From the NCBI GenBank assembly GCA_039804025.1, contig JBDRZP010000007.1, positions 2,719 to 66,718 on the forward strand: a DNA stretch of 64,000 bases. The letters are read 5' to 3'. Position numbers and translations under genes: made by a program. A model generated the notes under the pieces. It was given only the letters and a program-made list of their open reading frames with translations, had not been told where the DNA came from and did not search any database. This document shows, piece after piece, positions 950 to 61,379 of the stretch (positions within the stretch are counted from its first letter, which is position 1; each line of letters starts with the position of its first letter). This DNA comes from a candidate division WOR-3 bacterium (GTDB lineage Bacteria; Hydrothermota; Hydrothermia; Hydrothermales; JAJRUZ01).

Positions 950-962
950 AAGGTTCAAATCC
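950..962 (+). promoter_or_regulatory. upstream stem-loop motif AAGGTTCAAATCC, 21 nt before the ATG of 984..1496
   Basis: read directly from sequence; one of at least 9 instances of the same T-arm-like motif at constant distance from start codons. Confidence 0.45.
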
Positions 963-983
963 TAAAAAATAGAAAGAAAAAAA

Positions 984-1496
984 ATGGATTTTGGAAAAAT
1001 AATTGAAAAAGCTCTTTCAATTTTACAATTAAAAGAAGATGTAATAAAGGAAGTATCTGAAAAACCTGAATATTTAAATTTTTCAATTTTAATTGTTGCT
1101 ATTGCGGGACTTGCAAGTTCAATTGGTTCTTTTAAGTTTATTCCAGGTATAATCACTGGTCCAATTGTTGCTGTGATTGGATTTTTTATTTGGGTTGGAA
1201 TATTGTGGATTATTGCAAAAATCTTCGGTGGTAAAGGAAATTACCTCTCTTACTTTAAACCTCTTGCAATGTCTGATATAATTCAATGGGTAACAGTTAT
1301 ACCTTTTATAGGCTCTTTTCTTGGTGCCATTGCCTTAATATGGATGGTAATTGTTGCCATAAAGGTAACACAGATTGTTCATGAACTTGATCTTCCTAAA
1401 GCAGTTCTTGTTGTTCTAATACCGATTGGTGTAGTCTTCTTCCTGTTTCTTCTTTTTGGGGCTGCAGCCCTTGCTGTAATTGGAATGAGAGGATAA
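984..1496 (+). CDS. Yip1-domain-like small polytopic membrane protein
   Basis: 170 aa; hydrophilic N-terminus followed by 4-5 hydrophobic helices, the layout of Yip1/YIF1-type proteins. Confidence 0.45.
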   Translation: MDFGKIIEKALSILQLKEDVIKEVSEKPEYLNFSILIVAIAGLASSIGSFKFIPGIITGPIVAVIGFFIWVGILWIIAKIFGGKGNYLSYFKPLAMSDIIQWVTVIPFIGSFLGAIALIWMVIVAIKVTQIVHELDLPKAVLVVLIPIGVVFFLFLLFGAAALAVIGMRG

Positions 1497-1505
1497 AAAT
1501 CTTAA

Positions 1506-2855
1506 TCAAGAATAAAAGAAATTTTAACTAAATTTGAAAATAAATTATTAAGAGATAAAGATTTATTAATCAAATATTCTGAGGACGAATCACCGGTTAA
1601 GGGTAAAATACCAGAATTTGTATTTCTTCCTCAAAAAGTAGAAGAAGTCTCTGAATTTATTAAATACTGCTTTAAGTATAAAATTCCAATAACACCAAGA
1701 GGAGGGGGAACAGGTCTTTCAGGTGGTGCTGTTCCTTTAAAAGGTGGTGTTATATCCTTTGAAAGGATGAATAAAATTATTGATATTGACGAAATAAATC
1801 AATATGTGGTCCTTGAGCCTGGTGTAATTACAGGGGAAATTAATAAAGTTCTTAAATCCTTTGATCTTTTTTATCCACCTGATCCAATGAGTCTTGATTC
1901 ATGTACCATTGGTGGTAATGTTGCAACAAACGCAGGGGGTCCTAAGGCTTATAAATATGGTGTTACATCAAATTACCTTCTTGAACTGGAATGTGTATTT
2001 CCAAATGGGAAAGTAGAAACAATAGGTAAAAGAACAAGAAAATGGAAGGCTGGTTACAACCTATTGAATTTCTTATGTGGTTCTGAAGGAACACTTGCAT
2101 TATTTACAAAGATTACTCTTAAGGTAATTCCAAAACCTGAAAAAGAGATTCTTATAATGCTTGGATTTGAAGAAAATAATAAACTTTTTGAGTTTGTAAA
2201 AAAAATTATCAAAAATAAATTTTTCCCTTCAGTAATTGAATTTATGGATAAAAGTTGTTTTAATTTAGTAAAAGAGAAAATTAAAAATTTTTTCCAAATA
2301 GAAAGTTCTATACTCTTTATCAGTTTTGAAGGAGGGGAAAAAGATATAGAAAAGATTATTGAAAGATTTTATTTACTAACGGAAAAAGAAAAGATAAATA
2401 ACATTTTTGTAGGAGATGATAAAAATACTATTGAAAGAATGTGGAATATAAGAAAAAATATGTTTTATGAAACAGAAAAAATGGGTTTTAAAGTTCATTC
2501 AGAGGATGCAGGGATAACATTAACAAAAGCTATAGAATTTATTGAGGATATAAAAAAAATTCTTAAGGATTATAATAAAGAAGGTTATATATTCGGTCAT
2601 CTTGGTGATGGGAATATACATATAAATTTGACTTATAAAATGGATGAAAAAGGGTTGATTAAGGAAATTTCAAAAATTATATGGAATCTCATAATAAAAT
2701 ATGGTGGGACAATAACTGCAGAGCATGGAATAGGTTATTTAAAAAAGGAAGGGTTTAAAAGAGAAATATCACCTTTTTTATACAGAATTCATAAAGATAT
2801 TAAAAAAATTTTTGACCCAAAAGGCATTTTGAACCCGGGAAAAATTTTTTACTAA
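1506..2855 (+). CDS. FAD-linked oxidase (glycolate oxidase subunit GlcD / D-lactate dehydrogenase family). Track ORF starts at ATG 1767, but the FAD-binding domain is encoded in frame upstream from about 1506 with no ATG/GTG/TTG
   Basis: Upstream in-frame translation reads ...PVKGKIPEFVFLPQKVEEVSEFIKYCFKYKIPITPRGGGTGLSGGAVPLKGGVISFERM, the FAD-binding PCMH signature, joining MNKIIDIDEINQYVVLEPGV... C-terminal FAD-oxidase_C-like region; total about 449 aa, typical of GlcD. Confidence 0.6.
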   Translation, partial: SRIKEILTKFENKLLRDKDLLIKYSEDESPVKGKIPEFVFLPQKVEEVSEFIKYCFKYKIPITPRGGGTGLSGGAVPLKGGVISFERMNKIIDIDEINQYVVLEPGVITGEINKVLKSFDLFYPPDPMSLDSCTIGGNVATNAGGPKAYKYGVTSNYLLELECVFPNGKVETIGKRTRKWKAGYNLLNFLCGSEGTLALFTKITLKVIPKPEKEILIMLGFEENNKLFEFVKKIIKNKFFPSVIEFMDKSCFNLVKEKIKNFFQIESSILFISFEGGEKDIEKIIERFYLLTEKEKINNIFVGDDKNTIERMWNIRKNMFYETEKMGFKVHSEDAGITLTKAIEFIEDIKKILKDYNKEGYIFGHLGDGNIHINLTYKMDEKGLIKEISKIIWNLIIKYGGTITAEHGIGYLKKEGFKREISPFLYRIHKDIKKIFDPKGILNPGKIFY

Positions 2856-2901
2856 ATTTTAACTCAAATTATAGAATAAAAGTTTATTTAAAGATTTAAA
2901 A

Positions 2902-2935
2902 GGGGAAAAGGAGAATAATACTCTCCCCTCCCCCT
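2902..2935. terminator. putative bidirectional terminator hairpin (GGAGA-ataatac-TCTCC inside a G/C-rich extended stem) between convergent genes
   Basis: inverted repeat at 2910-2926 with flanking GGGG/CCCC arms, followed by a T-rich stretch; lies between the + gene ending 2855 and the - gene ending 2953. Confidence 0.4.
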
Positions 2936-2952
2936 GTTATATATCTCCTTAA

Positions 2953-4200
2953 TTACACCCAGCCTCTTAATTTCATTCCTTCCACCACTCTTCTCACTGC
3001 CACAGCGTATGCAGCAGTTCTGGGGTCAACATTAAATTCTTTCATAGCATCCCAGACAGCATTAAAGGACTTTGTCATTTTTGTATCAAGTCTCGAATAA
3101 ACCTCTTCCTCTTCCCAGTAAAACCCAGTAATATTCTGAACCCATTCAAAGTAAGAAACAGTAACACCACCTGCATTAGCAAGAAAATCAGGTAAAAATA
3201 AAATATTTTTCTTGTGCAAAATTTCATCAGCTTCAGGAGTAACAGGTCCATTTGCAAGCTCTAAAATTATTTTAGCCTTTATTTTATTTGCATTTTCTTC
3301 TGTTATCACTTCCTCAAGTGCTGCTGGAATAAGAATATCCACATCCAGTTCAAGAAGCTCCTCATTTGTTATTTTTTCACTTCCTTTAAAACCTACTACA
3401 GAACCTGTTTTATTTTTATGTTCAAAAACTTCCTCAAAGGGAAGTCCTTTCTTGTTTAAAATTCCACCTTTTGAATCGCTGACAGCAATAACTTTTGTTC
3501 CGAACATTTCTGTTATAAGTTTGTGGGCAAAGTATCCTGCATTTCCGTATCCCTGAATTGCACAGGTTGCTTTTTTAAGGTCTATCCCGAGTTTTTTAGC
3601 AGCTTCTCTCAATACATACATACCACCTCTTGCAGTAGCATCATTTCTTCCAACAGAACCACCTATTCTTAAAGGTTTCCCGGTAATTACCCCAGGGGCA
3701 TTATACTGTCTTATTTTACTGAATTCATCCATCATCCAAGCCATTATCTGGGGATTTGTGTAAACATCAGGAGCAGGAATATCCTTTTCAGGTCCTATTA
3801 CCTGGGCTATAGCTCTTATATATCCTCTTGAAAGTTCTTCCAGTTCCCTTTGAGACATTTCTTTTGGATTACATACAACACCACCCTTTCCCCCACCATA
3901 AGGTAAATCCATAAGTGCTGTTTTCCATGTCATCCAGGCTGCAAGTGCTCTAACAGTATCAATAGTTTCCTCAGGATGGAATCTTATACCACCCTTTGTT
4001 GGGCCAAGAGCATCATTATACTGAACCCTGAACCCTCTAAATACCTTAACAGTTCCATTATCCATTTTTACAGGTATAGAAACATGTATTTCCCGCATAG
4101 GCCACCTTAGCATCTCGTGAACATGAGGCTCAAGTTTTAAAACTTGGGCAGCTTTATCAAGCTGCTCCTGAGCAACTTCAAAGGGATTTTTTTTAGCCAT
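2953..4200 (-). CDS. gdhA: NAD(P)-dependent glutamate dehydrogenase
   Basis: 415 aa; catalytic GGGKGG motif, Rossmann IQGYGNAGY, overall Glu/Leu/Phe/Val dehydrogenase family layout. Confidence 0.9.
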
Positions 4201-4233
4201 TTTTAGTCCTCCAATTGTTATTTTTAAATTTTA

Positions 4234-4246
4234 GGGGATTTAACCC
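4234..4246 (-). promoter_or_regulatory. variant of the upstream stem-loop motif (GGGTTAAATCCCC on the minus strand), 33 nt upstream of the gdhA start
   Basis: read directly; one nucleotide shorter loop and longer spacing than the other instances. Confidence 0.25.
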
Positions 4247-4313
4247 TCCTCCTTTTTAAATTAATTATATAATAACTTTACAAATTCAGTCAAATAATTT
4301 AAAATATAATTAT

Positions 4314-4326
4314 AAGGTTCAAGTCC
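4314..4326 (+). promoter_or_regulatory. upstream stem-loop motif AAGGTTCAAGTCC, 23 nt before the ATG at 4350
   Basis: read directly; preceded by TATAAT at 4305-4310 and followed by SD GAGGT. Confidence 0.45.
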
Positions 4327-4349
4327 CTTTTTAAAAAAGAGGTTAAAAA

Positions 4350-4529
4350 ATGAACATTTCAAAAATAATTTTTATACTTTCCCTTATTACTTTTATAATA
4401 GCAATTGTTTTAAAACTTACAGGCACTGAATTCCCTCATCTTTTTAAACCTTATACCTACCTGAAAGGGACCTGGACATTACTTTTATTTTCTATTAGTT
4501 ACCATTTGATTTTTGAAAAGGGGAAATAA
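4350..4529 (+). CDS. small hydrophobic membrane protein (59 aa), below the ORF-track length cutoff
   Basis: ATG with SD (AAGAGGTtaaaaaATG) and the conserved upstream motif; translation MNISKIIFILSLITFIIAIVLKLTGTEFPHLF... has one clear TM helix. Confidence 0.4.
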   Translation: MNISKIIFILSLITFIIAIVLKLTGTEFPHLFKPYTYLKGTWTLLLFSISYHLIFEKGK

Positions 4530-4556
4530 AAGGGAAAAATATTTTAAAATATATAT

Positions 4557-4955
4557 GTGAATAAAGACACTTTAATTTTAGGTGTTGAAGAATTTGTTGA
4601 ATTACAGAAATTGCTTGATGATTTTACATACAGAGCAAACACACATTCTTCAATGCTTTCTACCCTTTCAGGACAATTACTTGTTTCTTCAGGTTTTAAA
4701 ACTCCCTTTAATCTACTTGCCATATCAGCATTACTTGCAGGGATTTTTCAAAGCACAAGAGAATTGGCAAGAATAATAGGAGAAAAAAATTTTGTAACTT
4801 TTTTTCAGGAAGGTAATAGCTGGAATATATATTACACCCTGGTTGGGGAAGACCTGCTCCTTACCACCTTTTTTGATGATAGAACTATACTGGGAATGGT
4901 AGAAGTTCAGGCAAAAAAACTTGCAAAAAAGATAAATGAACTTTTGAAAAAATGA
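4557..4955 (+). CDS. roadblock/LC7 (MglB-like) domain protein
   Basis: 132 aa; size and pattern (LILGVEEF...LAISALLAGIF...GNSWNIYYTLVGEDLLLTTFFD) fit the roadblock/LC7 fold; first gene of a coupled operon. Confidence 0.5.
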   Translation: MNKDTLILGVEEFVELQKLLDDFTYRANTHSSMLSTLSGQLLVSSGFKTPFNLLAISALLAGIFQSTRELARIIGEKNFVTFFQEGNSWNIYYTLVGEDLLLTTFFDDRTILGMVEVQAKKLAKKINELLKK

Positions 4956-11717: not shown

Positions 11718-11754
11718 ATTTGAAATTAGGAATTCAAAAATAGTATAAATAAAC

Positions 11755-14252: not shown

Positions 14253-14732
14253 TTACTTCCTCAAACTTTCAGTGAATTCTAATCCTTTCTCAGTTAAAAC
14301 ATAAAGTGGTTTTCCATTCCTCTTTTTAGGTAAAGAATAAATAAAATTTTTTTTTCTAAACTTCTGTAAAAAGGTTGAGGGATTTTTTGATATTTTCCAT
14401 TTCATTATTTTATAGATTGATTTTATATCAGAAAGTGTAAAGGATTTTCTTCCAAAATTCTCATAATAGAATCTCGCAGCAAGTAACATTTTTTCAGTAT
14501 TACTTTTTATTTTAAAATTTTTAAAATAATCCTTTGTTTTTTCTAAATCACTCTCTTCTAACTTGATTTTTTCTTTTTCAAAATATTTCTCTTTTTCAAT
14601 ATACTTCTCTTCAGGAAACTTTTTAAAAAAAGTTTTTAAAAATTCCTTAAATTTTCTTTCAACAAAATCCCTGTCACCCTGAATTTCTAACTCTAAATTT
14701 CCTTCCTTAATTCTTATAAGATATGTTGACAT
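14253..14732 (-). CDS. hypothetical K-rich protein
   Basis: 159-aa ORF; carries the conserved upstream motif at 14756-14768. Confidence 0.4.
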   Translation of the reverse strand: MSTYLIRIKEGNLELEIQGDRDFVERKFKEFLKTFFKKFPEEKYIEKEKYFEKEKIKLEESDLEKTKDYFKNFKIKSNTEKMLLAARFYYENFGRKSFTLSDIKSIYKIMKWKISKNPSTFLQKFRKKNFIYSLPKKRNGKPLYVLTEKGLEFTESLRK

Positions 14733-14755: not shown

Positions 14756-14768
14756 GGAATAGAACCTT
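14756..14768 (-). promoter_or_regulatory. upstream stem-loop motif (minus-strand AAGGTTCTATTCC), 23 nt upstream of the start at 14732
   Basis: read directly; in a divergent intergenic region shared with the 14816 instance. Confidence 0.45.
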
Positions 14769-14815
14769 TAAAAAGCAGTATATTATAATAACTTATGAAG
14801 ATTTTTTTTTCAATT

Positions 14816-14828
14816 AAGGTTCAAATCC
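14816..14828 (+). promoter_or_regulatory. upstream stem-loop motif AAGGTTCAAATCC, 24 nt before the ATG at 14853
   Basis: read directly; identical 13-mer to the 950 instance. Confidence 0.45.
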
Positions 14829-19301: not shown

Positions 19302-19376
19302 AGTCAAAAAAGTATTTAAAAATGAAAAATCTTGAAATTTTTATAATTTTATTTTATTATTACATGTAAGGCATAT

Positions 19377-19390
19377 AGGGTCTAATTCCC
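19377..19390 (+). promoter_or_regulatory. upstream stem-loop motif AGGGTCTAATTCCC, 20 nt before the ATG at 19411
   Basis: read directly; AGGG/CCCT stem with a 7-nt loop. Confidence 0.4.
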
Positions 19391-19410: not shown

Positions 19411-22044
19411 ATGAATTTTTTATTTTTATTCTTTTTTATATCTCAAATGAGTGAAGGTTTAAAAATAAACTTTCATACAGCAAGTTTTGAGCCAATTACT
19501 GAAGGTGTCCCTATATTCTCTTCTCAGTTGGATGGGAATTTTAATCCAGGTTTAAATTATGTAGTTATACAGTTTTCAGAAATCCCGACTCCAGAAGAAA
19601 GAAAAAATATTGGTGCAAGTTATGGTATTAAATTTACTCCCTGGTATATCCATGAGAATGCTTTTATTGTAAGTTTCGTTTCAGACAACCCATTAAAAAA
19701 GATAGAAGAAATAAAGGAAATAAGAAATGTGCGAAGTGTCTTTCTTTACAAACCAGCTTTTAAATTTACGAAAGATGCCTGGGAACTATTTACTACACAA
19801 CCTGATTTAAGAGACAAATTTTATGTTCAGGTTTTTCACGATTCTTTACTAATGGATGCTGTAAATCAGGTTATCAATCTTGGAGGTGAAATATTATTCA
19901 TCGGAAAAAGAGATTTAGAAGAGGCAAAACATCTTGCAAGATTTGGATTTATAATAGAAGCAGGGAAACTCGCACAGATTGCAAATAATAGTGGAGTTTT
20001 TGTTATCGGAAGATTATATGAAAAGAATGTTTTTAATGATGCTTCAAGATGGGTAATTCAGACAAATCTCTCAGTTGATACATCTATATGGGCTCGTGGA
20101 ATTAGAGGTGAGGGAGTTATAATAGGGCATAATGACAACGGACTTGACCCAAACCATTGTTTCTTTAATGGAACTATAGACGGTCAGCCAAAAATTGTAA
20201 GACTTTTTGATTATAACGGTGGAGGTTTTGCAAACGGGGATCATGGAACTCATACTGCAGGAAGTGCACTTGGTGGAACTGATCAGCAGAGCACAAATAA
20301 ACAATATAAAGGAATGGCTAAAAGGGCAAGACTTGTATCACAGGAACCATTAGCTCCTGACCCTCCTGGCTTTTACAGTGTCCTTCTTGACGCATATAGT
20401 GAAGGAGCAAGAATACATACAAATAGTTGGGGTTATCAATGTAATGCTATTTTAAATTATTGTGGAACAGGTGGATACGAATTAGAGGCTCTTGATATTG
20501 ATAATTTTGTATGGAATTATATTGATATGACCGTATTTTTTGCAGCAGCAAATGGTGGAGATTGTGTATCCCCTTGGACTTGTGGAAATGTAAGAAGAAT
20601 ATCCTGTCCTGCAACTGCAAAAAATGATATAACAGTTGTTGCAACAAGAAGAGCAAACAATCAGGAATATAAGACAACATGGAGTTCCTTTGGGGCACCG
20701 AATAATCGTGGTGATTACAGGTTTGGAACGGATTTAACTGCCCCTGGTGAGAATGTCAACTCTGCTGATAATAATACAGCATGTGGTATTGTTCAAATGT
20801 CAGGGACATCAATGGCAACTCCAACAGCAGCAGGGGCAGGAGCACTTGTTGTTCAATATTATAAAGAAGGATGGTATGGAAACGGAACAAAGAACTCTGC
20901 ACCTTCATGGAATCCCTCATCAGCACTTGTAAGGGCTACTCTTTTAGCATCTTGTAGGGATATGCTTTATGATGTTGATGATGATGAGTATGGACCAGCA
21001 AATTCAGGAGTCCCAAATATTTATGAGGGTGCAGGAAGAATAACTCTTGAAGATGCTTTGTGGTTTGGTGAGACAAGAAAACTTGCCTTTGTTGATGGTG
21101 ACTTACCATACGGAGATAATCAGTTTAATACTGGTGATTCAATTGTTTACACAATAAATGTTCTTGGAAGCTCTATACCATTAATAATTATTCTTTCATG
21201 GATTGATTATGTGGGGACAGCAAATACATATCCAGTTATAGTTAATAACCTAAATTTAAAGGTGGTTGATCCTTCCGGAAACACATATAAGGGGAATGTT
21301 ACATCCAATGGATGGTCTGTTCCAAATACTGGCTCTTTTGATGCACTTAATACCTGGGAACTCTTCAAATTACAGAACCCTTCAACAGGGGAATGGAAAA
21401 TAATAGTTAAAGGTGCTAATATACCTCAGCCCAAGCCTGCAGGAATAAAATATCCTTTTGCAATTGTTGTCACAGGTAATTTTGACCAAATTTCAAAACT
21501 TGGAACTACTGAAAGTTTTCTTATTCTCTCTTCTTTAAAAGAAGGGATTCTTTTAAATCTTAACTTCTTTGAAAAAATTTCAGAAATTTTGATCTTTAAA
21601 AAGGAAGAAAAAGAGAAAAACTTCTCCCTTATTTTAAAAGAAGAAAACCCTTTAGCACCCTACAGATTTGTTGATAGGAATGTAAAAATCGGGAATACTT
21701 ATGAATATAAAGTGATGGTAATTTCAGGAAGCGGAAATCAGTGGTTTGGTCCAGTTTCAATAAAGTATGATTACTTAACAAGTGAAATCAAAGCTTTTTC
21801 ACAAATTTCCGGTTCAAAACTTAAGTTAAATCTATACCTTGAAGAAGAGGACGAAATAGAACTCTATCTTAAAGACCCCTCTGGTAGAAATGTTAAAAAG
21901 ATTCTTGAAAATAGATTTTCAAAAGGAAACCACTCCTTAGTTTTTGACCTTTCAAATTACAGAATACCAAGCGGAATTTATTTTCTGAATATTAAAGGTA
22001 AAAGTGGAATTGATTTCAAGATTAAAATAAGTGTTTTATACTAA
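19411..22044 (+). CDS. secreted S8 subtilisin-like serine protease with T9SS-type C-terminal sorting domain
   Basis: signal-peptide-like N-terminus; catalytic blocks GDHGTHTAGS (His) and MSGTSMATP (Ser); C-terminal ~80 aa (ELYLKDPSGRNVKKIL...GIYFLNIKGKSGIDFKIKISVLY) matches the Por/T9SS CTD pattern. Confidence 0.8.
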   Translation: MNFLFLFFFISQMSEGLKINFHTASFEPITEGVPIFSSQLDGNFNPGLNYVVIQFSEIPTPEERKNIGASYGIKFTPWYIHENAFIVSFVSDNPLKKIEEIKEIRNVRSVFLYKPAFKFTKDAWELFTTQPDLRDKFYVQVFHDSLLMDAVNQVINLGGEILFIGKRDLEEAKHLARFGFIIEAGKLAQIANNSGVFVIGRLYEKNVFNDASRWVIQTNLSVDTSIWARGIRGEGVIIGHNDNGLDPNHCFFNGTIDGQPKIVRLFDYNGGGFANGDHGTHTAGSALGGTDQQSTNKQYKGMAKRARLVSQEPLAPDPPGFYSVLLDAYSEGARIHTNSWGYQCNAILNYCGTGGYELEALDIDNFVWNYIDMTVFFAAANGGDCVSPWTCGNVRRISCPATAKNDITVVATRRANNQEYKTTWSSFGAPNNRGDYRFGTDLTAPGENVNSADNNTACGIVQMSGTSMATPTAAGAGALVVQYYKEGWYGNGTKNSAPSWNPSSALVRATLLASCRDMLYDVDDDEYGPANSGVPNIYEGAGRITLEDALWFGETRKLAFVDGDLPYGDNQFNTGDSIVYTINVLGSSIPLIIILSWIDYVGTANTYPVIVNNLNLKVVDPSGNTYKGNVTSNGWSVPNTGSFDALNTWELFKLQNPSTGEWKIIVKGANIPQPKPAGIKYPFAIVVTGNFDQISKLGTTESFLILSSLKEGILLNLNFFEKISEILIFKKEEKEKNFSLILKEENPLAPYRFVDRNVKIGNTYEYKVMVISGSGNQWFGPVSIKYDYLTSEIKAFSQISGSKLKLNLYLEEEDEIELYLKDPSGRNVKKILENRFSKGNHSLVFDLSNYRIPSGIYFLNIKGKSGIDFKIKISVLY

Positions 22045-22084
22045 AATTTCCACAAAACCTAAAAAGATAAACTGTAAGGAAAAT

Positions 22085-23521
22085 TTATAATACTATTTCT
22101 TCAAACCTTCTACTCTTTGGTATCTGGCTTTTTATTTTGTTTTCCCTTTTAATACCAATTCCAAGGCATATTCCATCATAAACAAGAACTTTAAAACCAT
22201 CCCTTTCTTTATCTGAAATTTCAATATCAAAACCCTTTAAAATTTTTATCGCATCTTCAGAATTTTTAATTTCATAAATATTTTTCTTAATAAATGGAAA
22301 AACAAGCTGAACAAAATTTGTTGTCAGTTTGTATTCATTATTATGCAATCTTGCTATACGCATACCCTCCCTGAAAGAATGAGGAATTTCAAATTTTTCA
22401 AAATCTTCTGATAAAAGCCATATATCATTCTTTAATTTAAAAATTTTATCATCAAAATAAGATTCATCTATTCCAAAATATTCTTTAAGAAATTTTAAAA
22501 ACCTTCTAACCTCAGAATTATCCCTTTTTAAAAGTTTTCTATACTCTTTTTTTAAAACATAATCCTTTTCTTTTTTTAGTTTATCTATTTTCTTCATTTT
22601 AACAATAAAAAAACCCTCCATTTTTGATTTATGAGGCCATATCCTGATAGCTTTTTCAATTTCTTTTGAAAACTTTTTATCCCTATATTCAGTTATACCC
22701 CTTTCCTCATTTATGTTAAGTTTATCAATTTTCATCACTTCTACTGGGTAACTTTTTAAAATCTCATCAATAAGTTCTTCATTTTCTTCAACTGTTAAGG
22801 TGCAGGTTGAATAAACAATTTCACCTCCTACCTTTAAAGCCTTTATTGCTGAAACAAGAAGTTTTTTTTGAATAATTTTATAAAAATTAACCTCCCTTTC
22901 ATTCCACCAGGAAAGAACCTCCTTTGCTTTATGGAGAGTTCCCATACTTGAACAGGGAGCATCAACGAGAATTTTATCAAAACTTTCAAAATAAAATTTT
23001 CCAAATTGGACTCCATCCATCATAGTTATGGCAGTATTAATAAGACCAATTCTATCAATGTTATGGGTTAAAGCTTTTATTCTTGGTAAATGAATATCAT
23101 TACAAACAAGAACACCTTTATTTTCCATAATTTCACCAATCTGAGTTGCCTTAGAACCAGGAGCAGAAGCAATATCAAGTATAAATTGACCTTTTTCAGG
23201 TTTTAGAATCTTTACAGGTAAAAGAGAAGATTTTTCCTGTATGTAAAAAAGACCTGCGTAGTGTTCAAGTGTTTTACCTATTTCGTATGGTTCATAAATA
23301 ACTTCAAAGGAATTTTCATAAAGAGGGTTTTCTTTTAATATAAAGCCTTTCTTTATTAATCTTTCCTTCAAAAAATTTTTATCAGTTTTTAAAATATTAA
23401 CTCTTAAAGTTTTAGGGAATTCATCCTTAACAGATTCAAAAAATTCCTTTGTTTCCTTAGAACCAATGAGTTTAACAAGGTAAGAATAAAAGGAGGTATT
23501 TTCAAACAAGATTTCTTGCAA
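22085..23521 (-). CDS. 16S rRNA m5C methyltransferase, RsmB/RsmF (NOL1/NOP2/Sun) family
   Basis: DIASAPGSKATQI (SAM motif) and DKILVDAPCSSMGTL (catalytic Cys); C-terminal extension as in RsmF. Confidence 0.8.
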   Translation of the reverse strand: MQEILFENTSFYSYLVKLIGSKETKEFFESVKDEFPKTLRVNILKTDKNFLKERLIKKGFILKENPLYENSFEVIYEPYEIGKTLEHYAGLFYIQEKSSLLPVKILKPEKGQFILDIASAPGSKATQIGEIMENKGVLVCNDIHLPRIKALTHNIDRIGLINTAITMMDGVQFGKFYFESFDKILVDAPCSSMGTLHKAKEVLSWWNEREVNFYKIIQKKLLVSAIKALKVGGEIVYSTCTLTVEENEELIDEILKSYPVEVMKIDKLNINEERGITEYRDKKFSKEIEKAIRIWPHKSKMEGFFIVKMKKIDKLKKEKDYVLKKEYRKLLKRDNSEVRRFLKFLKEYFGIDESYFDDKIFKLKNDIWLLSEDFEKFEIPHSFREGMRIARLHNNEYKLTTNFVQLVFPFIKKNIYEIKNSEDAIKILKGFDIEISDKERDGFKVLVYDGICLGIGIKRENKIKSQIPKSRRFEEIVL

Positions 23522-24233
23522 GTTCCCTTATGTTAAGAGCACTTTCCTTTATTTTTATTGCAGAGTTTATTACCTTTAAATCTTCCGTTTTCTGAGAAAT
23601 TGTATTTGCTTCTTTTAAAATTTCCTGTCCATAAAAATCCAGTTTTTTACCCCATGGTCCATCTTTATTTTTTAAAATTCTCATAATACTTTTTATATGA
23701 GAGCCTATTCTAACAATTTCCTCATTTATTTTCTCACCATTCATCTTTTCTAAATTAAACCCAATTTTTTTTATTTCCCTTTCAATTGCTTTTTTTATTT
23801 CTTCTCCCTCCTTTAATCTTTTTTCTTCAAGTTCTATTAGGGCTTTTTTTAAAAGTCTTTTTAAAAGTATCCATATTCTTTTTTCAGGATAAATAAATTT
23901 AACAAGACCAGGAATTTTGAATGGGTCAATGGTAAATAGTAAATTCTTTTTACTTTTAAGTTTTATATCTTTAATTAAATTTTCATTAATTTTGAATCTC
24001 AATCCTGTTTCGGGAAAATTAATTTTAACTATGAATTTTCCATCCTTTAAATTTTTTTCAAGAAAATTTCTTACCTTTGCTTCTATTCCAGGGATTTCTG
24101 GCTGTAAAATAACTTTAAACTCAGAACCTAATGAATTTAAAGATATAATTTCAAGTTTACAGAAAATATTACCTTCTCTTCCCGATTTCGTGCTTACACC
24201 TGTCATACTTTTTATTCCCTTTTTAATTTTCAT
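23502..24233 (-). CDS. YicC/YloC-family stress-induced protein
   Basis: N-terminal SMTG motif and overall size (243 aa, somewhat short); overlaps rsmB-like start by 20 nt. Confidence 0.55.
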   Translation of the reverse strand: MKIKKGIKSMTGVSTKSGREGNIFCKLEIISLNSLGSEFKVILQPEIPGIEAKVRNFLEKNLKDGKFIVKINFPETGLRFKINENLIKDIKLKSKKNLLFTIDPFKIPGLVKFIYPEKRIWILLKRLLKKALIELEEKRLKEGEEIKKAIEREIKKIGFNLEKMNGEKINEEIVRIGSHIKSIMRILKNKDGPWGKKLDFYGQEILKEANTISQKTEDLKVINSAIKIKESALNIRELARNLV

Positions 24234-26160: not shown

Positions 26161-28182
26161 TTACCTTGTGATTATAACTTTAAAAGGTTTATTCTCTTTG
26201 TTATATTTTAAAAAGTAAATGCCAGAGCAAATTCCATCAATGGATAATGAAATTCTTGAATTTGATTTGCTCACTCTATAAGTTCTAACTTTCTCACCAA
26301 GAACATTATAAAGTTCAAATTGACTTATTTTATCTTTAATCAAATGATTTGATTCAATCTTTATCTCATTTTTAACAACATTACCTAATAACCTGAATTC
26401 TTCTTTTGAAAAATCGTTTTCCTCTATTCCATATCCATAAAACTTGTAAATCTGTAAACCAGCATAATAATCAGCTACATAGGCGTAATTTTCTGAAACA
26501 TAAACACCTTCTGCCCATTCAGGTGTCTGATAGTATCCTACTTCATATGGTGAAGAAGGATTTGAAACATTTATTATCCTTAAACCAGAATTCCCATCAG
26601 CAACATAGGCATAATTGTCTGAAACATAAACACCCTGTGCATAGCCAGGTGTATCATAATATCCTACTTCATATGGTGAAGAAGGATTTGAAATATCTAT
26701 TATCCTTAAACCAGAACCTCCATCAGCAACATAGGCATAATTGCTCGAAACATAAACACCCTGTGCATAGCCAGGTGTATCATAATATCCTACTTCATAT
26801 GGTGAAGAAGGATTTGAAATATCTATTATCCTTAAACCAGCCCTCTCATCAGCAACATAGGCATAATTGCTCGAAACATAAACACCTAATGCAGCTCCAG
26901 GTGTATCATAATATCCTACTTCATATGGTGAAAAAGAATTTGAAACATCTATTATCCTTAAACCAGAACCCTTATCAGCAACATAGGCATAATTGCCCGA
27001 AACATAAACACCTATTGCATCGTCAGGTGTATAATAATATCCTACTTCATATGGTGAAGAAGGATTTGAAATATCTATTATCCTTAAACCAGCATAATAA
27101 TCAGCAACATAGGCATAATTGCTTGAAATATAAACACCTAATGCAGCTCCAGGTGTATCATAATATCCTACTTCATATGGTGAAAAAGGATTTGAAACAT
27201 TTATTATCCTTAAACCAGCCCTCCCATCAGCAACATAGGCATAATTGCTCGAAACATAAACACCTATTGCATCGTCAGGTGTATAATAATATCCTACTTC
27301 ATATGGTGAAGAAGGATTTGAAACATTTATTATCCTTAAACCAGAATTCCCATCAGCAACATAGGCATAATTGTCTGAAACATAAACACCCTGTGCAGCT
27401 CCAGGTGTATCATAATATCCTACTTCATATGGTGAAGAAGAATTTGAAACATCTATTATCCTTAAACCAGAACCTCCATCAGCAACATAGGCGTAATTGC
27501 CTGAAACATAAACACCCCATGCCCAGCCAGGTGTATAATAATATCCTACTTCATATGGTGAAGAAGGATTTGAAACATCTATTATCCTTAAACCAGAAAT
27601 TCCATCAGCAACATAGGCGTAATTGCCTGAAATATGAACACCTAATGGATAGCCAGGTGTATTATAATATCCTACTTCATATGGTGAAGAAGGATTTGAA
27701 ACATTTATTATCCTTAAACCAGCATAATAATCAGTAACATAGGCGTAATTGCCTGAAACATAAACACCATAAGAATAGCTAGGTGTAAAATAATGACCAA
27801 GTTTGATTGGATTTGACGCATCTGTAACATCCCATATTTCAAGTCCACCTTGTTCTGTTGCAATATACAATCTCTTATTTACTGGTTCATAAAAAAGTCC
27901 CCAAACAAATCCCCTTGTATAAATTTTTTCTGAAACTTTTTGAGGATTAGAAGGATTTGAAACATTTAAAATATATACACCACCACCTGAACCCAAAAAT
28001 ACAAGGTTCCTTGAAGGATCAAAAGAAACTGCAAAAGAAGGACCAAATGGCCAGTTGCCTATGAATCGGACATTCATTGAATCAAAACCTGCCTTTACTT
28101 CAATTTCAGAAGGAGGAAACAATTTCCAGGGCTTATAATTAATTCCGGTATTTATCAAATTTATAAGTATGAATACCAACAT
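26161..28182 (-). CDS. secreted LVIVD-repeat (beta-propeller-like) protein with T9SS-type C-terminal sorting domain
   Basis: about 11 copies of a 40-aa unit [41 protein letters not shown] (LVIVD repeat pattern); signal-peptide-like N-terminus; C-terminus ...[20 protein letters not shown] is T9SS-CTD-like. Confidence 0.7.
   Translation of the reverse strand: [673 protein letters not shown]
26440..27790. repeat. about 11 tandem copies of a 120-nt unit (near-identical) encoding the LVIVD repeats
   Basis: recurring strings such as tattatccttaaaccag at 120-nt spacing (26573, 26693, 26813, ... 27653). Confidence 0.85.
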
Positions 28183-42167: not shown

Positions 42168-42180
42168 GGATTTGAACCCC
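42168..42180 (-). promoter_or_regulatory. upstream stem-loop motif (minus-strand GGGGTTCAAATCC), 23 nt upstream of the nuoM start
   Basis: read directly. Confidence 0.45.
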
Positions 42181-54074: not shown

Positions 54075-54098
54075 ATAATGGGTTCTTTATAAAGATAA

Positions 54099-55856: not shown

Positions 55857-55958
55857 AAGTTTTCCTCCTTTATTTTTATTAAATAAAATTTATTATAATC
55901 TTTTTGTATTTTAAAGTTCAATTTTGAAAACAAGTTTAAAAATTTCTTATTTTAAAAT

Positions 55959-56894
55959 ATGAAACCTAAAAAACTGAAACTCGGTTTTTTTCCAACAAAA
56001 GTTGAAAAAATTATCCTTGATGGAGAAGAAATTCTTATTAAAAGGGATGACTTTACAGAACTTGTAGGTTCTGGAAATAAAATAAGAAAATTAGAGTACT
56101 TCTTTTACAAGGCAAAAAAAGAAAAAGTTAAAAAAATAGTTACATGTGGAGCAATTCAATCAAATCATGCAAGAGTAGCTGCTTATCTTGCGAGAAAATT
56201 AAATTTTGAACCTGTTTTATTTTTAAGGGGAGAAAAATCGAAAACATATGAAGGAAATTTATTTTTAAACCACCTTTTTGGAGCTGAAATACATTTTGTA
56301 AAAGAAAGAGAATATGAGGAGATTGATAAAATAATGGAGGAATATAAAAATTCTGAAATGAAAAAGAAAAATAAAGTGCTTTTAATCCCTGAGGGTGGCT
56401 CCGATGAACTCGGATTATGGGGATATGTTGATGCATTCTCTGAAATGAAAGAATTTATATTGAAAAATAAAATTGATTCAATTTTCTGTGCTGTTGGTTC
56501 AGGTGGAACATACGCAGGTTTATTTCTCGGTAAAAAAATATTTAATCTTGATACTAAAATTTGCGGTGTTCTTGTTACAAGAAACAAAAAATATTTTGAA
56601 GAAAAAATTGAAAAAATACTGAAAGGAGCCATAGAAAAATATAAATTGAATATTAATTTTAGCAAAGAAGAATTCGTTTTTTATGAAAATTACATAGGAG
56701 AAGGTTATGGAATACCCTATAAAGAAGAAATAGAAATAATTAAAAAAATGGCTAAAAAAGGAATAATTCTTGACCCTGTATATACAGGAAAGGCCTTCTA
56801 TGGATTTTTAAATGAAAGGAAAAATTATAATAAACCACTTTTTTTACACACAGGAGGAATTTTTAGCATATTCGCCTTTAAAGAATATTTTTAA
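55959..56894 (+). CDS. PLP-dependent D-cysteine desulfhydrase / ACC deaminase family enzyme
   Basis: SGNKIRKLEYF and TCGAIQSNHARVAAYLA motifs. Confidence 0.75.
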   Translation: MKPKKLKLGFFPTKVEKIILDGEEILIKRDDFTELVGSGNKIRKLEYFFYKAKKEKVKKIVTCGAIQSNHARVAAYLARKLNFEPVLFLRGEKSKTYEGNLFLNHLFGAEIHFVKEREYEEIDKIMEEYKNSEMKKKNKVLLIPEGGSDELGLWGYVDAFSEMKEFILKNKIDSIFCAVGSGGTYAGLFLGKKIFNLDTKICGVLVTRNKKYFEEKIEKILKGAIEKYKLNINFSKEEFVFYENYIGEGYGIPYKEEIEIIKKMAKKGIILDPVYTGKAFYGFLNERKNYNKPLFLHTGGIFSIFAFKEYF

Positions 56895-56996
56895 AAAATG
56901 TGATTTAAATCACTTGTAATTTTTAAAAAATCAATATATAATTAAAAATAACCATCTCTATAAGCTCCTAATTAGTTGGGGGGGTACTTAGAGATG

Positions 56997-57010
56997 AGGG
57001 TCCGAGTCCC
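56997..57010 (+). promoter_or_regulatory. upstream stem-loop motif AGGGTCCGAGTCCC, 22 nt before the ATG at 57032
   Basis: read directly; SD AGGAG lies between motif and ATG. Confidence 0.4.
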
Positions 57011-57031
57011 TATAAAATAAAGGAGTTTAGT

Positions 57032-58861
57032 ATGTATAAATTAATTCCAATGATCTTATTCGCAGTATTTCTCCTGGGATTCACGGAGAAAGAAATCACA
57101 GGGGAAGTTGTAATACAAAATCCTGTAAAAAAAGAAAATATCAAACTCCCACAGAACTTCAACCCTGAAAGTGCTGAGAGGGAACTCATAAATGCAAGAG
57201 AATCTGGAAATAAAGAACTCGCTGGTGAGTTATCGAAATATATACATGAATGGTGGAAGATGAATAGAAAGGAAAACTACTCCCCGATAACCTGTGGGGA
57301 TAACCCTGAACCAGGTAAAAATTTAAAGGAAGAAAATTCAAACTTTAACCAGAATATTCTGAGATGGGGAAATGATGTGAGAATTGATCCAAGAAATGGA
57401 GTAAACGATGTTAAAATAACCTCCCTTTCAACAGGTGAACTCTATACAATTTCGAAATTTTTTGATGGGACAAATTACCGTGTTATAGTTCACAGATCCA
57501 CTGATAATGGAGAAACATGGAATATTTATTGGGATAATACTTTTTCAACAGGGTATAGCATCACTTCACCCGGCATCTTAGCAGTTAATGATACCCTTGT
57601 TTTATGGTACATTTTAATCCAAAACGATACTCTCTATAGAACATGGTTTATCACTGCTTTACCAGGAAATTCTTTCAATCCTATATCCTTTGGTTCTCCC
57701 ACAGGAGGATTTAATGACAATGTCCAATATTGGAATCTTGATTTCAAAACAGATGCACCTCATTACGGTTTATATGAATATAACTATGCAACCTGGGTTG
57801 AATATTATTATGTAGGAACGGATTCAACAAGTGTGATGTTTGCAAGATCAAATGAACTTAATGTCTCAAACTGGGAATTAGGTCCTGTTAAGGTAATGAA
57901 AACCTCCGGGGATAATATATATTATTATCACTCTAAAATTTCTTTTGGTGACCCTCATAGACTATGGATTATTGGACCCTTACATCCATACGGGTATCCC
58001 AATATTTATGATGAGACTATCGGGGGTGTTTATAGTGATGACTATGGGTCTTCCTGGACCCCAAGCAACCCATTTAATCCATTATGGATAACTCCTTTCA
58101 ATGACCATTACGATGATTTTGAGTGTGATTTAGCTGCATCCTATATTGATTCAAACTGGGTAATTTTAGTTACAAGAACAGATACAGGCATACTTCATTT
58201 TCAAGACCTAAATCTTTACAACTACTATTCAAAAAATGGAGGGAATACATGGAATTTTCAGGGATGGGTAATGCCTGATCTTAATTTTAGTCCTGATGTT
58301 TATGTTGATAATTCAAGCACTGCCTTTTATGCTGTTTTCAGAAAGAATATCCCTTCAGGCCCATATGAAGAAGTAAGACTTAAAATAGGTAATATAAATG
58401 ACCCCTCATCCTGGACTGGTTCATATCTTAATATAATAAACGATGATAGTACTGACAACTTAAGTGATGACTTTGGGTCCTATGTAAGTTATAACCCTTC
58501 CACAAATGAGCCTGTTGTGGTATGGACAAGTTTTGAAGGTTTTACTTACAGTATATGGTTTGATGCTCAAACAAGAGTTAAAATTTCTGAAAAAATCATA
58601 AATGAAGAAAATGAAACCACACTTATACCGAGTATTGGGAAAAATAATTTAAAAATTTTCTTCTACATACCATCCCCTTCAAATGTTAAACTGAATATCT
58701 ATTCCCCTGATGGAAGAATTGTAAAAAATATTCTTAACTCAAAACTTAATAAAGGTAATTACACTTATAACATAAGAAACACATTGAAAAATGGCAAATA
58801 CTTTCTAAAACTTGAAACTGAGAATACAAAAGTTTCTATACCCTTAATCATTGTTAAATAA
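57032..58861 (+). CDS. secreted BNR-repeat (sialidase/glycosidase-like) protein with T9SS-type C-terminal sorting domain
   Basis: signal peptide; BNR motifs STDNGETW, SKNGGNTW, DDYGSSWT; C-terminus NVKLNIYSPDGRIVKNIL...GKYFLKLETENTKVSIPLIIVK matches the T9SS CTD. Confidence 0.65.
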   Translation: MYKLIPMILFAVFLLGFTEKEITGEVVIQNPVKKENIKLPQNFNPESAERELINARESGNKELAGELSKYIHEWWKMNRKENYSPITCGDNPEPGKNLKEENSNFNQNILRWGNDVRIDPRNGVNDVKITSLSTGELYTISKFFDGTNYRVIVHRSTDNGETWNIYWDNTFSTGYSITSPGILAVNDTLVLWYILIQNDTLYRTWFITALPGNSFNPISFGSPTGGFNDNVQYWNLDFKTDAPHYGLYEYNYATWVEYYYVGTDSTSVMFARSNELNVSNWELGPVKVMKTSGDNIYYYHSKISFGDPHRLWIIGPLHPYGYPNIYDETIGGVYSDDYGSSWTPSNPFNPLWITPFNDHYDDFECDLAASYIDSNWVILVTRTDTGILHFQDLNLYNYYSKNGGNTWNFQGWVMPDLNFSPDVYVDNSSTAFYAVFRKNIPSGPYEEVRLKIGNINDPSSWTGSYLNIINDDSTDNLSDDFGSYVSYNPSTNEPVVVWTSFEGFTYSIWFDAQTRVKISEKIINEENETTLIPSIGKNNLKIFFYIPSPSNVKLNIYSPDGRIVKNILNSKLNKGNYTYNIRNTLKNGKYFLKLETENTKVSIPLIIVK

Positions 58862-58892
58862 TTTTTTAGATTTACTCTGAAAAAATATAGGG

Positions 58893-58920
58893 GGGAGGTG
58901 GTTTAAAAACTATCTCCCCT
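58893..58920. terminator. putative bidirectional terminator hairpin (GGGGAG...CTCCCC) followed by T-run, between convergent genes
   Basis: inverted repeat at 58893-58920 then tcttttatttt. Confidence 0.4.
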
Positions 58921-58923
58921 CTT

Positions 58924-60219
58924 TTATTTTAAAAGTTTTCTTTCAAAGGCTTCCCTTTCCAGCTGTTCCCTAAAATCAGGGTGAGCAATTTCTATTAAAG
59001 CCTTTGCCCTTTCTTTTAAAGACTTTCCCCATAATTCAGCAATACCGTATTCTGTTACCACATACCTTACATCAGCCCTTGTTGTTACAACTCCTGCACC
59101 TTCCTTCAATTTGGATACAATTTTTGATACTTTTCCACCTTTTGCTGTTGAAGGAATTGCTATAATGGGTTTTCCATTTTTACTCCATCCTGCTCCCCTT
59201 ATAAAATCCACCTGTCCACCAAAACCTGAATAAATGTATGTTCCAATGGAATCTGAACAAACCTGGCCCGTCAAATCAATCTCAATTGCTGAATTGATAG
59301 CAACCATATTATCATTTCTTGCAATAATAAAAGGATGATTAACATAATCACAGGGATGGAGTTCAAAAATAGGATTATTATGGCAAAAGTTATAAAGATC
59401 TTCAGAACCAAATATAAAAGTTCCGATAACTTTCCCTGGATGTAAAGTCTTTCTCGCACCTGTAATGGTTCCATCAAGAATCCTCTCCATTATTCCATCA
59501 GAAATCATCTCGGTGTGAATGCCAAGATCTTTTTTACCTTTTATAAATTTCAAAACTGCATTCGGTATACCACCTATTCCAACCTGTAAAGTGGCACCAT
59601 CATCAATTAAATCTACAATATATCTTGCAATTTTTTCCTCTGTTTCTGTAGGTTCTATTTTAGGAAGAGTATATAAAGGTTCATCAATTTCACAAAGAGC
59701 TGTTATCTTCGATATATGAACAAAACAATCTCCAAGTGTTCTGGGCATTCTCCTATTTACCTGAGCTAAAACCTTTTTAGCACTCTGTATAGCAGCCTTT
59801 GTTGCAATAACTTCAACACCGAGGCTCAAAAATCCGTGCTCATCAGGTGGAGAAGTATGAATTATAGCAACATCAATTTTAATCTTACCTTCTCTTATCA
59901 AAACAGGAATTTCATGCAAATGACAGGGAATATACTCAGCATTACCTTCATTTACAGATTCTCTATCAGCAGGCCCAACAAAAAGAGATTTATGTATAAA
60001 ATTTTCATAAGTTCCATGCTTTTTAAAAGGGTCTTCACCTGCCTGTAATACATGATAAACTTTTACATTTTCAAGATCTTTTCTTCTTGCAAGAAAATCA
60101 AGCAAAAAACTGGGAGTAGCTGCATTTCCGGAGACAAATACTGAGTCTCCGGATTTTATAAGTGATATAATTTCTTCTGGACTTTTTTTCCTTTCATGAT
60201 ACATTTTAAGAAAACTCAT
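58924..60219 (-). CDS. acetyl-CoA hydrolase/transferase family protein (4-hydroxybutyrate CoA-transferase-like)
   Basis: N-terminus YHERKKSPEEIISLIKSGDSVFVSGNAATP and overall 431-aa layout typical of Cat2/AbfT. Confidence 0.75.
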   Translation of the reverse strand: MSFLKMYHERKKSPEEIISLIKSGDSVFVSGNAATPSFLLDFLARRKDLENVKVYHVLQAGEDPFKKHGTYENFIHKSLFVGPADRESVNEGNAEYIPCHLHEIPVLIREGKIKIDVAIIHTSPPDEHGFLSLGVEVIATKAAIQSAKKVLAQVNRRMPRTLGDCFVHISKITALCEIDEPLYTLPKIEPTETEEKIARYIVDLIDDGATLQVGIGGIPNAVLKFIKGKKDLGIHTEMISDGIMERILDGTITGARKTLHPGKVIGTFIFGSEDLYNFCHNNPIFELHPCDYVNHPFIIARNDNMVAINSAIEIDLTGQVCSDSIGTYIYSGFGGQVDFIRGAGWSKNGKPIIAIPSTAKGGKVSKIVSKLKEGAGVVTTRADVRYVVTEYGIAELWGKSLKERAKALIEIAHPDFREQLEREAFERKLLK

Positions 60220-60233
60220 AAAAATCCCCTCCT

Positions 60234-61349
60234 TTATAAAACAGGATAACCTTCACTCCACGGATGTTTCCTTGTAAATTTTCCCTTAAAAGTATAACAA
60301 CCATTCCATAGAGCTTTATTTTCTTTTATATAATCAATTCCATTTTTAACAATTTCTTTTAAATATGGAATTAAAGCATTGGAAAGAGCATGTGAAGCAG
60401 TTCTTGCTACAAAAGAAGGAACATTAGGAACACAAAAATGAATCACACCGAATTCTTTGTAAACAAAACTTTCTGTTGGTGTAAGTCTTGATGTCTCACA
60501 TGCACCTCCCTGGTCTATAGAAAAATCAATTATAACAGAACCGCTTCTCATAGATTTAACCATATCCCTTGTAACAATCTTCGGGGTTTTCTCTCCTGGA
60601 ACAAGAATTGCTAAGATAAGAACGTCAGCAAATTTAACAAATTTAGAAATATTTTCGTAAGTTGCAATAGCAGTAACTACTCTTCCACCGAAAATTTCAT
60701 CAACTTTTTCAAGTTTATTTTTTGAAATATCAAGCATATAAACCGAAGCTCCCAATCCAAGAAAAGACCTTGCAGCATAAGTTCCAAGTGTTCCGGAACC
60801 TATTATAACAACATCAGCAGGAGGTATCCCTGGAATACCACCTAAAAGAATTCCAAGCCCACCCCTTTCTGTTTCAAGCAATCTACCTGCAATCTGGGGA
60901 GCGAGTTTACCGGCTATTTCACTCGAAACCCTTAAAATTGGTAAAGTTCCATCCTCTTCCTGAATTATTTCGTAACCAATAGATGTAATCTTCTTTTCAA
61001 CAAAGGCATCATATATATTTTTTGGTTTCACAGCAAGATGCAAAAATCCAAAAATGACATGGTTTTCTTTCAAAAGTGAAAGTTCACTTTCGAAAGGCTG
61101 GTTTATTCCTAAGATAATATCAGACCTTAAAAAAACTTCTTCCTTTGAATATACTATTTGGGCGCCTTTTTCCTTATACTCTTCATCAGTAAAACCAGCA
61201 CCTTCTCCTGCTTTGCTCTCTAAGTAAATTTCAGCTCCAAGATCAATTAACTCTTTACAGGCTGAAGGAGAAAGAGGCACTCTTTTTTCATAAATATTAC
61301 CCTCTCTTTCCGATAAGGGAATACCTATTATTATTCTATCCATAAACAC
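60234..61349 (-). CDS. ald: alanine dehydrogenase (GTG start at 61349; ATG at 61343 more likely the true start)
   Basis: collinear with Ald: IGIPLSEREGNIYEKRVPLSP..., VIIGSGTLGTYAARSFLGLGASVYMLD Rossmann; first codon in the track ORF is GTG. Confidence 0.85.
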   Translation of the reverse strand: MFMDRIIIGIPLSEREGNIYEKRVPLSPSACKELIDLGAEIYLESKAGEGAGFTDEEYKEKGAQIVYSKEEVFLRSDIILGINQPFESELSLLKENHVIFGFLHLAVKPKNIYDAFVEKKITSIGYEIIQEEDGTLPILRVSSEIAGKLAPQIAGRLLETERGGLGILLGGIPGIPPADVVIIGSGTLGTYAARSFLGLGASVYMLDISKNKLEKVDEIFGGRVVTAIATYENISKFVKFADVLILAILVPGEKTPKIVTRDMVKSMRSGSVIIDFSIDQGGACETSRLTPTESFVYKEFGVIHFCVPNVPSFVARTASHALSNALIPYLKEIVKNGIDYIKENKALWNGCYTFKGKFTRKHPWSEGYPVL

Positions 61350-61364
61350 CCTCCTTTAAAAAGA

Positions 61365-61379
61365 GGGGGTTGAACCCTC
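61365..61379 (-). promoter_or_regulatory. upstream stem-loop motif (minus-strand GAGGGTTCAACCCCC), 21 nt upstream of the ATG at 61343
   Basis: read directly; SD GGAGG between motif and ATG. Confidence 0.4.

Follow-up and report, generated by a model that had tools for sequence, protein, structure and literature searches.

T-Arm-Like Elements Upstream of Start Codons

The window, i.e., the whole stretch of 64,000 nucleotides analyzed in this work, belongs to contig C7 of the genome of a candidate division WOR-3 bacterium (assembly GCA_039804025.1, contig JBDRZP010000007.1) and harbors nine copies of a short element resembling the T-arm of a tRNA, each of them preceding, at a short distance, the start codon of a co-oriented gene (Table 1). 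Pfam assigned the downstream genes to Yip1, radical SAM, subtilase, NuoM, Ald, and GdhA, or recognized in them the C-terminal sorting domain (CTD) of the type IX secretion system (T9SS), whereas a 59-aa open reading frame (ORF) has no family. These assignments bear out the gene names given in an earlier note on this DNA, which had been made from the letters alone, and its view that the genes served are unrelated, with gdhA and ald being fronted by degenerate variants. The nine instances listed in that note are all real; however, only five of them match the exact pattern RGGTYCRARTCC (0.09 being expected on the basis of dinucleotide shuffles), the other four being variants with two mismatches or a 6-nt loop. 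The constant spacing that it claimed does not extend to the gdhA variant, which lies about 34 nt from the gdhA ATG. Two divergent intergenic regions (4235-4326 and 14756-14828) contain two copies each, one facing each gene, and the second of these pairs had been correctly described. No Rfam family was found in the window.

The exact pattern occurs 105 times in the whole genome, with 36 copies corresponding to tRNA T-arms (recognized by ARAGORN) and 69 lying outside tRNA genes. Its two main 12-mer variants were observed 40 and 35 times, versus a mean of 0.11 and 0.07 for permuted 12-mers (maximum 3), and both are also present among the T-arms of the tRNAs encoded by the same genome. Since 69 non-tRNA copies of two near-fixed 12-mers stand against about 0.1 for permuted 12-mers, the element is not due to chance. 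As many as 64 of these 69 copies are followed by a co-oriented ATG opening an ORF 12-42 nt downstream, and the gap between the end of the element and the ATG is 19-23 nt in 44/66 copies, with a peak at 21. Just two copies fall inside ORFs, i.e., C5:68359 (+, antisense) and C18:29382 (+, same strand); coding DNA is practically free of the element, and nearly all of the 69 copies are intergenic. In total, about 3.5% of the genes of the genome (approximately 70) are fronted by it. The genome-wide count relative to gene starts that the earlier note had called for thus reveals a pile-up before ATGs, with the motif neither equally frequent in coding DNA nor randomly placed, and the orientation and (for the majority of copies) the spacing seen in the window hold throughout the genome.

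The conserved portion is restricted to a core of 12-15 nt, and the flanks show nothing past their A/T richness. The absence of a complete tRNA, already stated for the window, was confirmed by ARAGORN, which finds none at the 69 sites, and the flanks retain no remnants of an acceptor stem or of CCA. The debris of mobile elements was likewise rejected, in agreement with the earlier note, as were repetitive extragenic palindrome (REP)-like repeats, the flanks being unconserved. Repeats of the REP type, or bacterial interspersed mosaic elements (BIME), are palindromes of about 30-40 nt, mostly located 3' of genes and not placed relative to start codons; on the contrary, the core described here is not palindromic through the loop and precedes the genes with a fixed spacing to the ATG.

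The genome is 2.12 Mb long (47 contigs) and has a GC content of 29.9%. The GC content of its 16S rRNA gene (contig C3, minus strand, near 86.8 kb) is 62% and that of its tRNAs 63%, versus 30% for the genome, marking the organism as a thermophile with an AT-rich genome; its DNA turns up in hot-spring metagenomes. The alanine dehydrogenase (Ald) encoded in the window is 84% identical to the homologue of a hot-spring metagenome-assembled genome (MAG) of a Candidatus Hydrothermales bacterium (L001, contig JBCNUW010000034); for this MAG, the closest named relative, the NCBI taxonomy gives the order Caldifarciminales and the phylum Caldifarciminota.

Table 1. T-arm-like elements and sigma-70-like promoter matches detected in the window.
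Feature	Position	Strand	Context
Exact element AGGTTCAAATCC	951..962	+	21 nt 5' of ATG (984) of the Yip1-domain gene 984-1496; begins 1 nt past the stop of the upstream ORF 251-949 (TTG start)
Variant GGG-TTAAAT-CCC, 6-nt loop	4235..4248	-	Leader of gdhA (2953-4200, -)
Exact element AGGTTCAAGTCC	4315..4326	+	5' of the 59-aa ORF (4350-4529); divergent partner of the gdhA-leader copy
Variant AGG-TTCTATT-CC	14756..14768	-	5' of ORF 14253-14732 (-), 159 aa, no Pfam family; divergent partner of 14817..14828
Exact element AGGTTCAAATCC	14817..14828	+	24 nt 5' of the radical SAM ATG (14853); divergent partner of 14756..14768
Variant GGG-TCTAATT-CCC	19377..19390	+	20 nt 5' of the subtilase gene (19411-22044)
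Exact element GGGTTCAAATCC	42168..42179	-	23 nt 5' of the nuoM ATG (42144)
Exact element GGG-TCCGAGT-CCC	56998..57009	+	22 nt 5' of the ATG (57032) of a T9SS-CTD protein
Variant GGG-TTCAACC-CCC	61365..61378	-	5' of the alanine dehydrogenase gene 60234-61349 (-), GTG 61349 / ATG 61340
Sigma-70-like match TTGATT-18-TAAAAT	909..938	+	-10 ends 12 nt 5' of the 951 element
Sigma-70-like match TTGACT-18-TATAAT, 11/12	4264..4293	-	-10 ends 16 nt 5' of the gdhA-leader element
Sigma-70-like match	4277..4305	+	-10 ends 9 nt 5' of the 4315 element
Sigma-70-like match	14785..14813	-	-10 ends 16 nt 5' of the 14768 element
Sigma-70-like match	19332..19360	+	-10 ends 16 nt 5' of the 19377 element

Six further matches with two mismatches (ATGTTTCAAATCCT) were not considered members, as they lie in a coding tandem repeat. 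The repeat (26470-27794, 126 bp, 10.5 copies, 89% identity) is embedded in the gene 26161-28182 (-), whose product is an LVIVD-repeat protein with a T9SS C-terminal sorting domain. A separate feature of the window is a flip in the sign of the GC skew at approximately 20000-24000 (positive from 4 to 20 kb, negative from 24 kb onward), a hint that an origin or terminus of replication lies within the window or close to it.

Stem, Loop, and Predicted Folding

According to the tRNA numbering, the element is arranged as G52-G53, a 7-nt loop (T54-T55-C56-R57-A58-N59-N60), and C61-C62. The two pairs G1/C11 and G2/C10 are invariant (66/66 copies), and a third pair is formed by the flanking positions 0 and 12, which are A-T in 30 copies, G-C in 23, A-C in 6, and G-T in 4 (Fisher p = 9e-8). 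Pair counting on the 66-copy alignment returned the same covariation of the third pair, with the outer A/T-rich pairs being no better than slid-partner controls. Instead of the GG-rich stem of 4-5 bp described in the earlier note, the stem is one of 3 bp, made up of two invariant G-C pairs and one covarying R-Y pair, to which a weak A-U is sometimes added. A stable extended stem was sought and rejected, in that the RNAfold hairpins are weak and non-significant and the slid-partner controls equal the real outer A/T pairing; a stable hairpin is not predicted by folding.

The same T-loop is enclosed by GG stems in 85 copies, 52 of which are at the ATG spacing, whereas AT, TA, AA, and TT stems remain at background; in the case of the AT, TT, and AA stems, 24-30 copies were counted, with 1-3 at the ATG spacing. 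A search allowing one mismatch retrieved 63 further copies with the spacing kept, whose variable sites correspond to tRNA positions 57, 59, and 60 plus the 5' R, whereas U54, C56, and A58 as well as the G53-C61 and G52-C62 pairs are fixed; among the spacing-kept copies with one or two mismatches, these three loop sites almost never vary. Position 57 is mostly A, yet T and C are tolerated, both in the spacing-kept variants and in orthologues (TTCTATT), so that a purine is not strictly kept at this site.

The conserved core of the tRNA T-loop consists of the U54-A58 reverse-Hoogsteen pair, C56, and the closing G53-C61 pair. The element shares with it the invariance of U54, C56, and A58 in a 7-nt loop and the G53-C61 pair closing a paired stem. 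Since the fixed and the variable loop sites are those of the tRNA T-loop core, the conservation pattern of the sequences speaks in favor of an RNA motif with a defined shape, as opposed to a DNA word of arbitrary sequence. The third stem pair does not separate RNA from DNA, given that the G-T wobble and the A-C mismatch are about equally depleted. Indeed, the covariation of the two arms would also suit a dyad-symmetric DNA site, i.e., an RGG...CCY inverted repeat with a 7-bp spacer acting as the operator of a dimeric regulator, and the weakness of the folded hairpin points in the same direction; on the other hand, neither a repressor nor a sigma factor has any reason to copy the core of an RNA T-loop.

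Conservation and Lineage Range

In order to count the element in other genomes, a pattern excluding tRNAs (RGGTYCRARTCCNWW) was used, which has 0 tRNA and 48 non-tRNA matches in the genome under study. Genomes of the same family (f1) contain 22-75 copies, whereas about 270 genomes from the remaining families of the same order, class, and phylum contain 0-10; the expansion is limited to one family, comprising two genera. In the sister genus (G005), 19/25 sampled copies are located 19-28 nt upstream of the ATG.

At the level of single genes, the element is kept at the same place before the radical SAM, Yip1, nuoM, gdhA, and T9SS genes in four genomes of the same genus and one of the same family. 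In these orthologues, the GG/CC stem is maintained, and the loop TTCAAAT is changed to TTCAATT, TTCAAGT, TTCAACT, or TTCAAAC; loop variants were also found in the orthologues of the radical SAM copy (14817). The nuoM copy is present in five orthologues, in which the third pair is G-A, T-A, T-G, or G-T depending on the genome. The gdhA-leader copy is shared by four same-genus orthologues and one of the same family, with the loops TTAAAT, TTAAATT, and TTAAAAT, and the loop TCCGAGT of the T9SS gene reads TTAAAGT in one orthologue (G003). In the leader of the ald homologue of L001, a hairpin GGG-TTTGACT-CCC occupies the place of the variant copy of the window. Copies also turn over among sister genomes.

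Such a turnover, as well as the occurrence of the two main variants as tRNA T-arms, might be accounted for by a neutral spread, in which T-arms would have been copied into intergenic DNA by recombination or slippage and would have no present function. Nevertheless, a process of this kind would not, in two genera, fix the distance to the start codon at 19-23 nt, would not keep the copies almost wholly out of coding DNA, and would neither preserve the stem while loop positions 57, 59, and 60 change in the orthologues nor generate the covariation of the stem. Neutral spread is largely refuted by these positional and comparative data, and we regard it as highly improbable.

Promoter-Like Sequences and Transcript 5' Ends

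The promoters of the window reported in Table 1 are sigma-70-type consensus scan matches only; in five copies, the -10 ends 9-16 nt upstream of the element. In both divergent regions (4235-4326 and 14756-14828), sigma-70-like matches are located immediately 5' of both copies of the pair. At the genome scale, a -35/-10 pair whose -10 ends 6-18 nt 5' of the element was found for 27.5% of the copies versus 5.6% of controls placed at the same distance from an ATG, and a comparison with AT-matched controls showed a modest enrichment of -10-like hexamers 5' of the copies. No -35/-10 pair occurs at a fixed offset anchored on the element itself, and the promoter-like -10s lie 5' of it.

The RNA data consist of Logan metatranscriptome contigs from a strain related at about 97% identity, provide two contig boundaries, and cover few copies of the motif. 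The gdhA contig ends at 4252, which is 4 nt upstream of the copy in the gdhA leader and closely follows the 11/12 promoter match, and the subtilase-leader contig starts at 19306, 71 nt 5' of the 19377 copy, which it covers. The enrichment of upstream promoter-like pairs and the end of the gdhA contig are hints that many primary transcripts may begin at the element or close to it. To this extent, they back the transcription start site-proximal hairpin that the earlier note had offered as one option.

These results also bear on the possibility that the element acts in transcription at the DNA level, being either the operator described above or part of a promoter read by a dedicated sigma factor and followed by a fixed, very short leader. 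As expected for a site of this sort, the element is co-oriented with the genes, tied to gene starts, and found among promoter-like sequences. However, its spacing is tied to the ATG and not to the promoter, and it lacks both a -10 consensus of its own and a -35-type element at a fixed distance upstream; the sigma-70-like -10s are upstream of the motif and do not coincide with it. Moreover, the gdhA contig ends 5' of the copy, suggesting that the copy is transcribed, unlike a -10 element. On balance, a DNA-level element appears unlikely.

Motif genes are somewhat more often the first of a transcription unit (29% are divergent versus 21% of genes generally); for 54% of them, a preceding gene on the same strand is no more than 150 nt away, and in 14 of the 69 copies the element begins 0-5 nt past the stop codon of such a gene. 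The latter, being inside operons, might suggest that the element is an RNA processing signal, at which an endonuclease would cut just 5' of the T-arm-like hairpin and leave mRNAs starting with it, in a bacterial analogue of tRNA punctuation or t-element processing. The end of one RNA contig 4 nt 5' of a copy would be in agreement with such a cut, and the loop mimics the element recognized by tRNA-processing enzymes. In the case of bacterial RNase P, the T-stem has to be stacked with an acceptor stem, giving a 12-bp ruler, whereas no pairing extending past the 3-4 bp stem was found around the copies, which speaks against a processing signal. In addition, the enrichment of promoter-like sequences upstream suits primary rather than processed 5' ends. 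All this makes a processing signal rather doubtful.

Downstream Genes and Translation Context

The 66 downstream proteins contain 153 Pfam families and are functionally diverse. They include GAPDH, GroES, RRF, POR, SucC, SdhA/FrdA, NarI, NuoM, acyl-CoA dehydrogenase, and DivIVA, as well as a PilB-like ATPase, Flp pilins, four T9SS-CTD cargo proteins, and SBBP proteins. This functional breadth fits a general RNA-level device better than a single regulon.

Two roles in the recruitment of the ribosome were considered and rejected. The element does not replace the Shine-Dalgarno (SD) sequence, in that SD-like sequences are neither more nor less common in the motif genes (41% of motif leaders versus 36% of other genes); similarly, no complementarity to the 16S rRNA that would allow an epsilon-like enhancer pairing was detected, and the 3' end of the 16S rRNA has a normal anti-SD.

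A Putative T-Arm Mimic in mRNA Leaders

On the basis of the whole body of data, we tentatively favor the idea that the element is a family-specific mimic of the tRNA T-arm, which would work at the RNA level at the 5' end of mRNAs, influencing either their stability or the start of translation; it might well be so, the role being inferred. According to this scheme, a short hairpin, in which two G-C pairs and an R-Y pair close a 7-nt UUCAAAU T-loop, would copy the T-arm in mRNA leaders; it would immediately precede the SD region, with 19-23 nt left between its end and the start codon. In many genes, a putative promoter just upstream would place it at, or within a few nt of, the 5' end of the transcript, and it would most likely be recognized in RNA and not in DNA. 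The stem being too short to stand alone, the element would probably work through a partner recognizing T-arms; the shape of the T-loop would be held by a T-arm-modifying enzyme, with TruB, TrmA/TrmFO, TrmI, and TtuA as candidates, or by another protein binding the tRNA elbow. Once held in this way, the hairpin might act as a guard of the 5' end, slowing down the decay that depends on it, and/or might aid the binding of the ribosome just downstream. The observations behind this scheme are the sequence of the element, its spacing rule, a conservation pattern like that of a structure, its distribution, and hints of a transcript start close by.

Several observations weigh against this scheme. RNAfold gives no T-arm hairpin in most copies and the shuffle z-scores are around 0; a weak predicted folding is expected for a stem of only 3 bp, the more so at thermophilic temperatures. 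By itself, a 3-bp stem should melt in a thermophile; the hairpin would therefore have to rely on a partner, or on the tertiary pairs of the T-loop together with modifications. The covariation of the third pair could partly be inherited from two ancestral sequence types, as both types also exist as tRNA T-arms. The evidence for a location at the 5' end is weak, as it consists of consensus promoter matches and the end of a single contig, and the unchanged frequency of SD sequences offers no hint of what the element would do for initiation. Lastly, no candidate binding protein emerged: in this genome, the TruB and TrmA-like genes are single-copy and the GIDA-family genes are normal, so that the expansion of paralogues of T-arm enzymes (TruB, TrmA-like, GIDA/TrmFO) that was looked for was not found.

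The comparison with known systems helps to define what a T-arm mimic would share with them. The T-loop module occurs in tRNA, in RNase P RNA, in stem I of T-boxes, and in some riboswitches. The element has the same 7-nt UUCRAAU loop, with conserved U54, C56, and A58, variable 57, 59, and 60, and the G53-C61 and G52-C62 pairs; nonetheless, it is an isolated mini-hairpin in mRNA leaders, devoid of a D-loop partner or acceptor stem, and it is present in many copies in one bacterial family only. Bacterial 5' stabilizers, such as the leader hairpin of E. coli ompA and those of B. subtilis ermC and aprE, are also stem-loops located at the 5' end of the transcript or close to it (a position that is predicted here for the element), upstream of the ribosome binding site (RBS), and in many transcripts. 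They require a stable stem and no specific loop sequence, whereas the element has a fixed loop and GG/CC stem, a fixed distance from the start codon, and a 3-bp stem that is too short to be stable alone (minimum free energy folds, z about 0).

In the thrS leader of E. coli, the anticodon arm of tRNA-Thr is mimicked and bound by ThrRS, resulting in the autoregulation of one gene. As in that case, part of a tRNA is copied in an mRNA leader shortly before the RBS, a hint that a tRNA-binding protein may recognize it; the element differs from a thrS-type operator in copying the T-arm and not the anticodon arm, and in doing so before approximately 70 unrelated genes. The tRNA-like structures of plant mitochondrial mRNAs (t-elements) and tRNA punctuation define the ends of transcripts by processing; t-elements are near-complete tRNA-like folds in organelles, whereas the element is a T-arm only and belongs to a bacterium. 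Eukaryotic Pus4/TRUB1 pseudouridylates mRNAs at T-loop-like GUUCNANNC motifs, and the element reads GTTCAAATC, which is compatible with GUUCNANNC, so that, judging from the sequence, a T-arm enzyme could act on it; the Pus4/TRUB1 sites, unlike the element, are scattered throughout mRNAs with no set spacing to start codons, and they do not represent a lineage-specific expansion into many copies. In the literature searched, no T-arm mimic was found that is multicopy, family-specific, and fixed at a given spacing upstream of the start codons of many unrelated genes of a bacterium.

A further, more speculative step, which we hold to be improbable, is that the mimics are modified like tRNAs (Ψ55 by TruB, m5U54 by TrmA/TrmFO, m1A58 by TrmI, thiolation by TtuA) and/or bound by a tRNA-elbow-binding protein, in which case the tRNA-maturation pathway would represent a shared switch of mRNA stability or translation for about 70 genes. 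T-arm modifications could stabilize a 3-bp hairpin enough for it to act in a thermophile. The modification hypothesis is plausible because, according to a 2026 review, TruB pseudouridylates some bacterial mRNAs (PMC13602947).

If the element is indeed a 5'-end RNA device read by T-arm proteins, it would link tRNA maturation to genome-wide gene expression and offer a natural test case for bacterial tRNA enzymes acting on mRNAs; it would also represent a sequence-specific signal of the mRNA 5' end that arose in a thermophilic candidate-phylum lineage. The restriction to a single lineage and the turnover of copies among sister genomes make the claim of a T-arm device directly testable. The element hints at an unrecognized way of controlling many genes at once in these bacteria.

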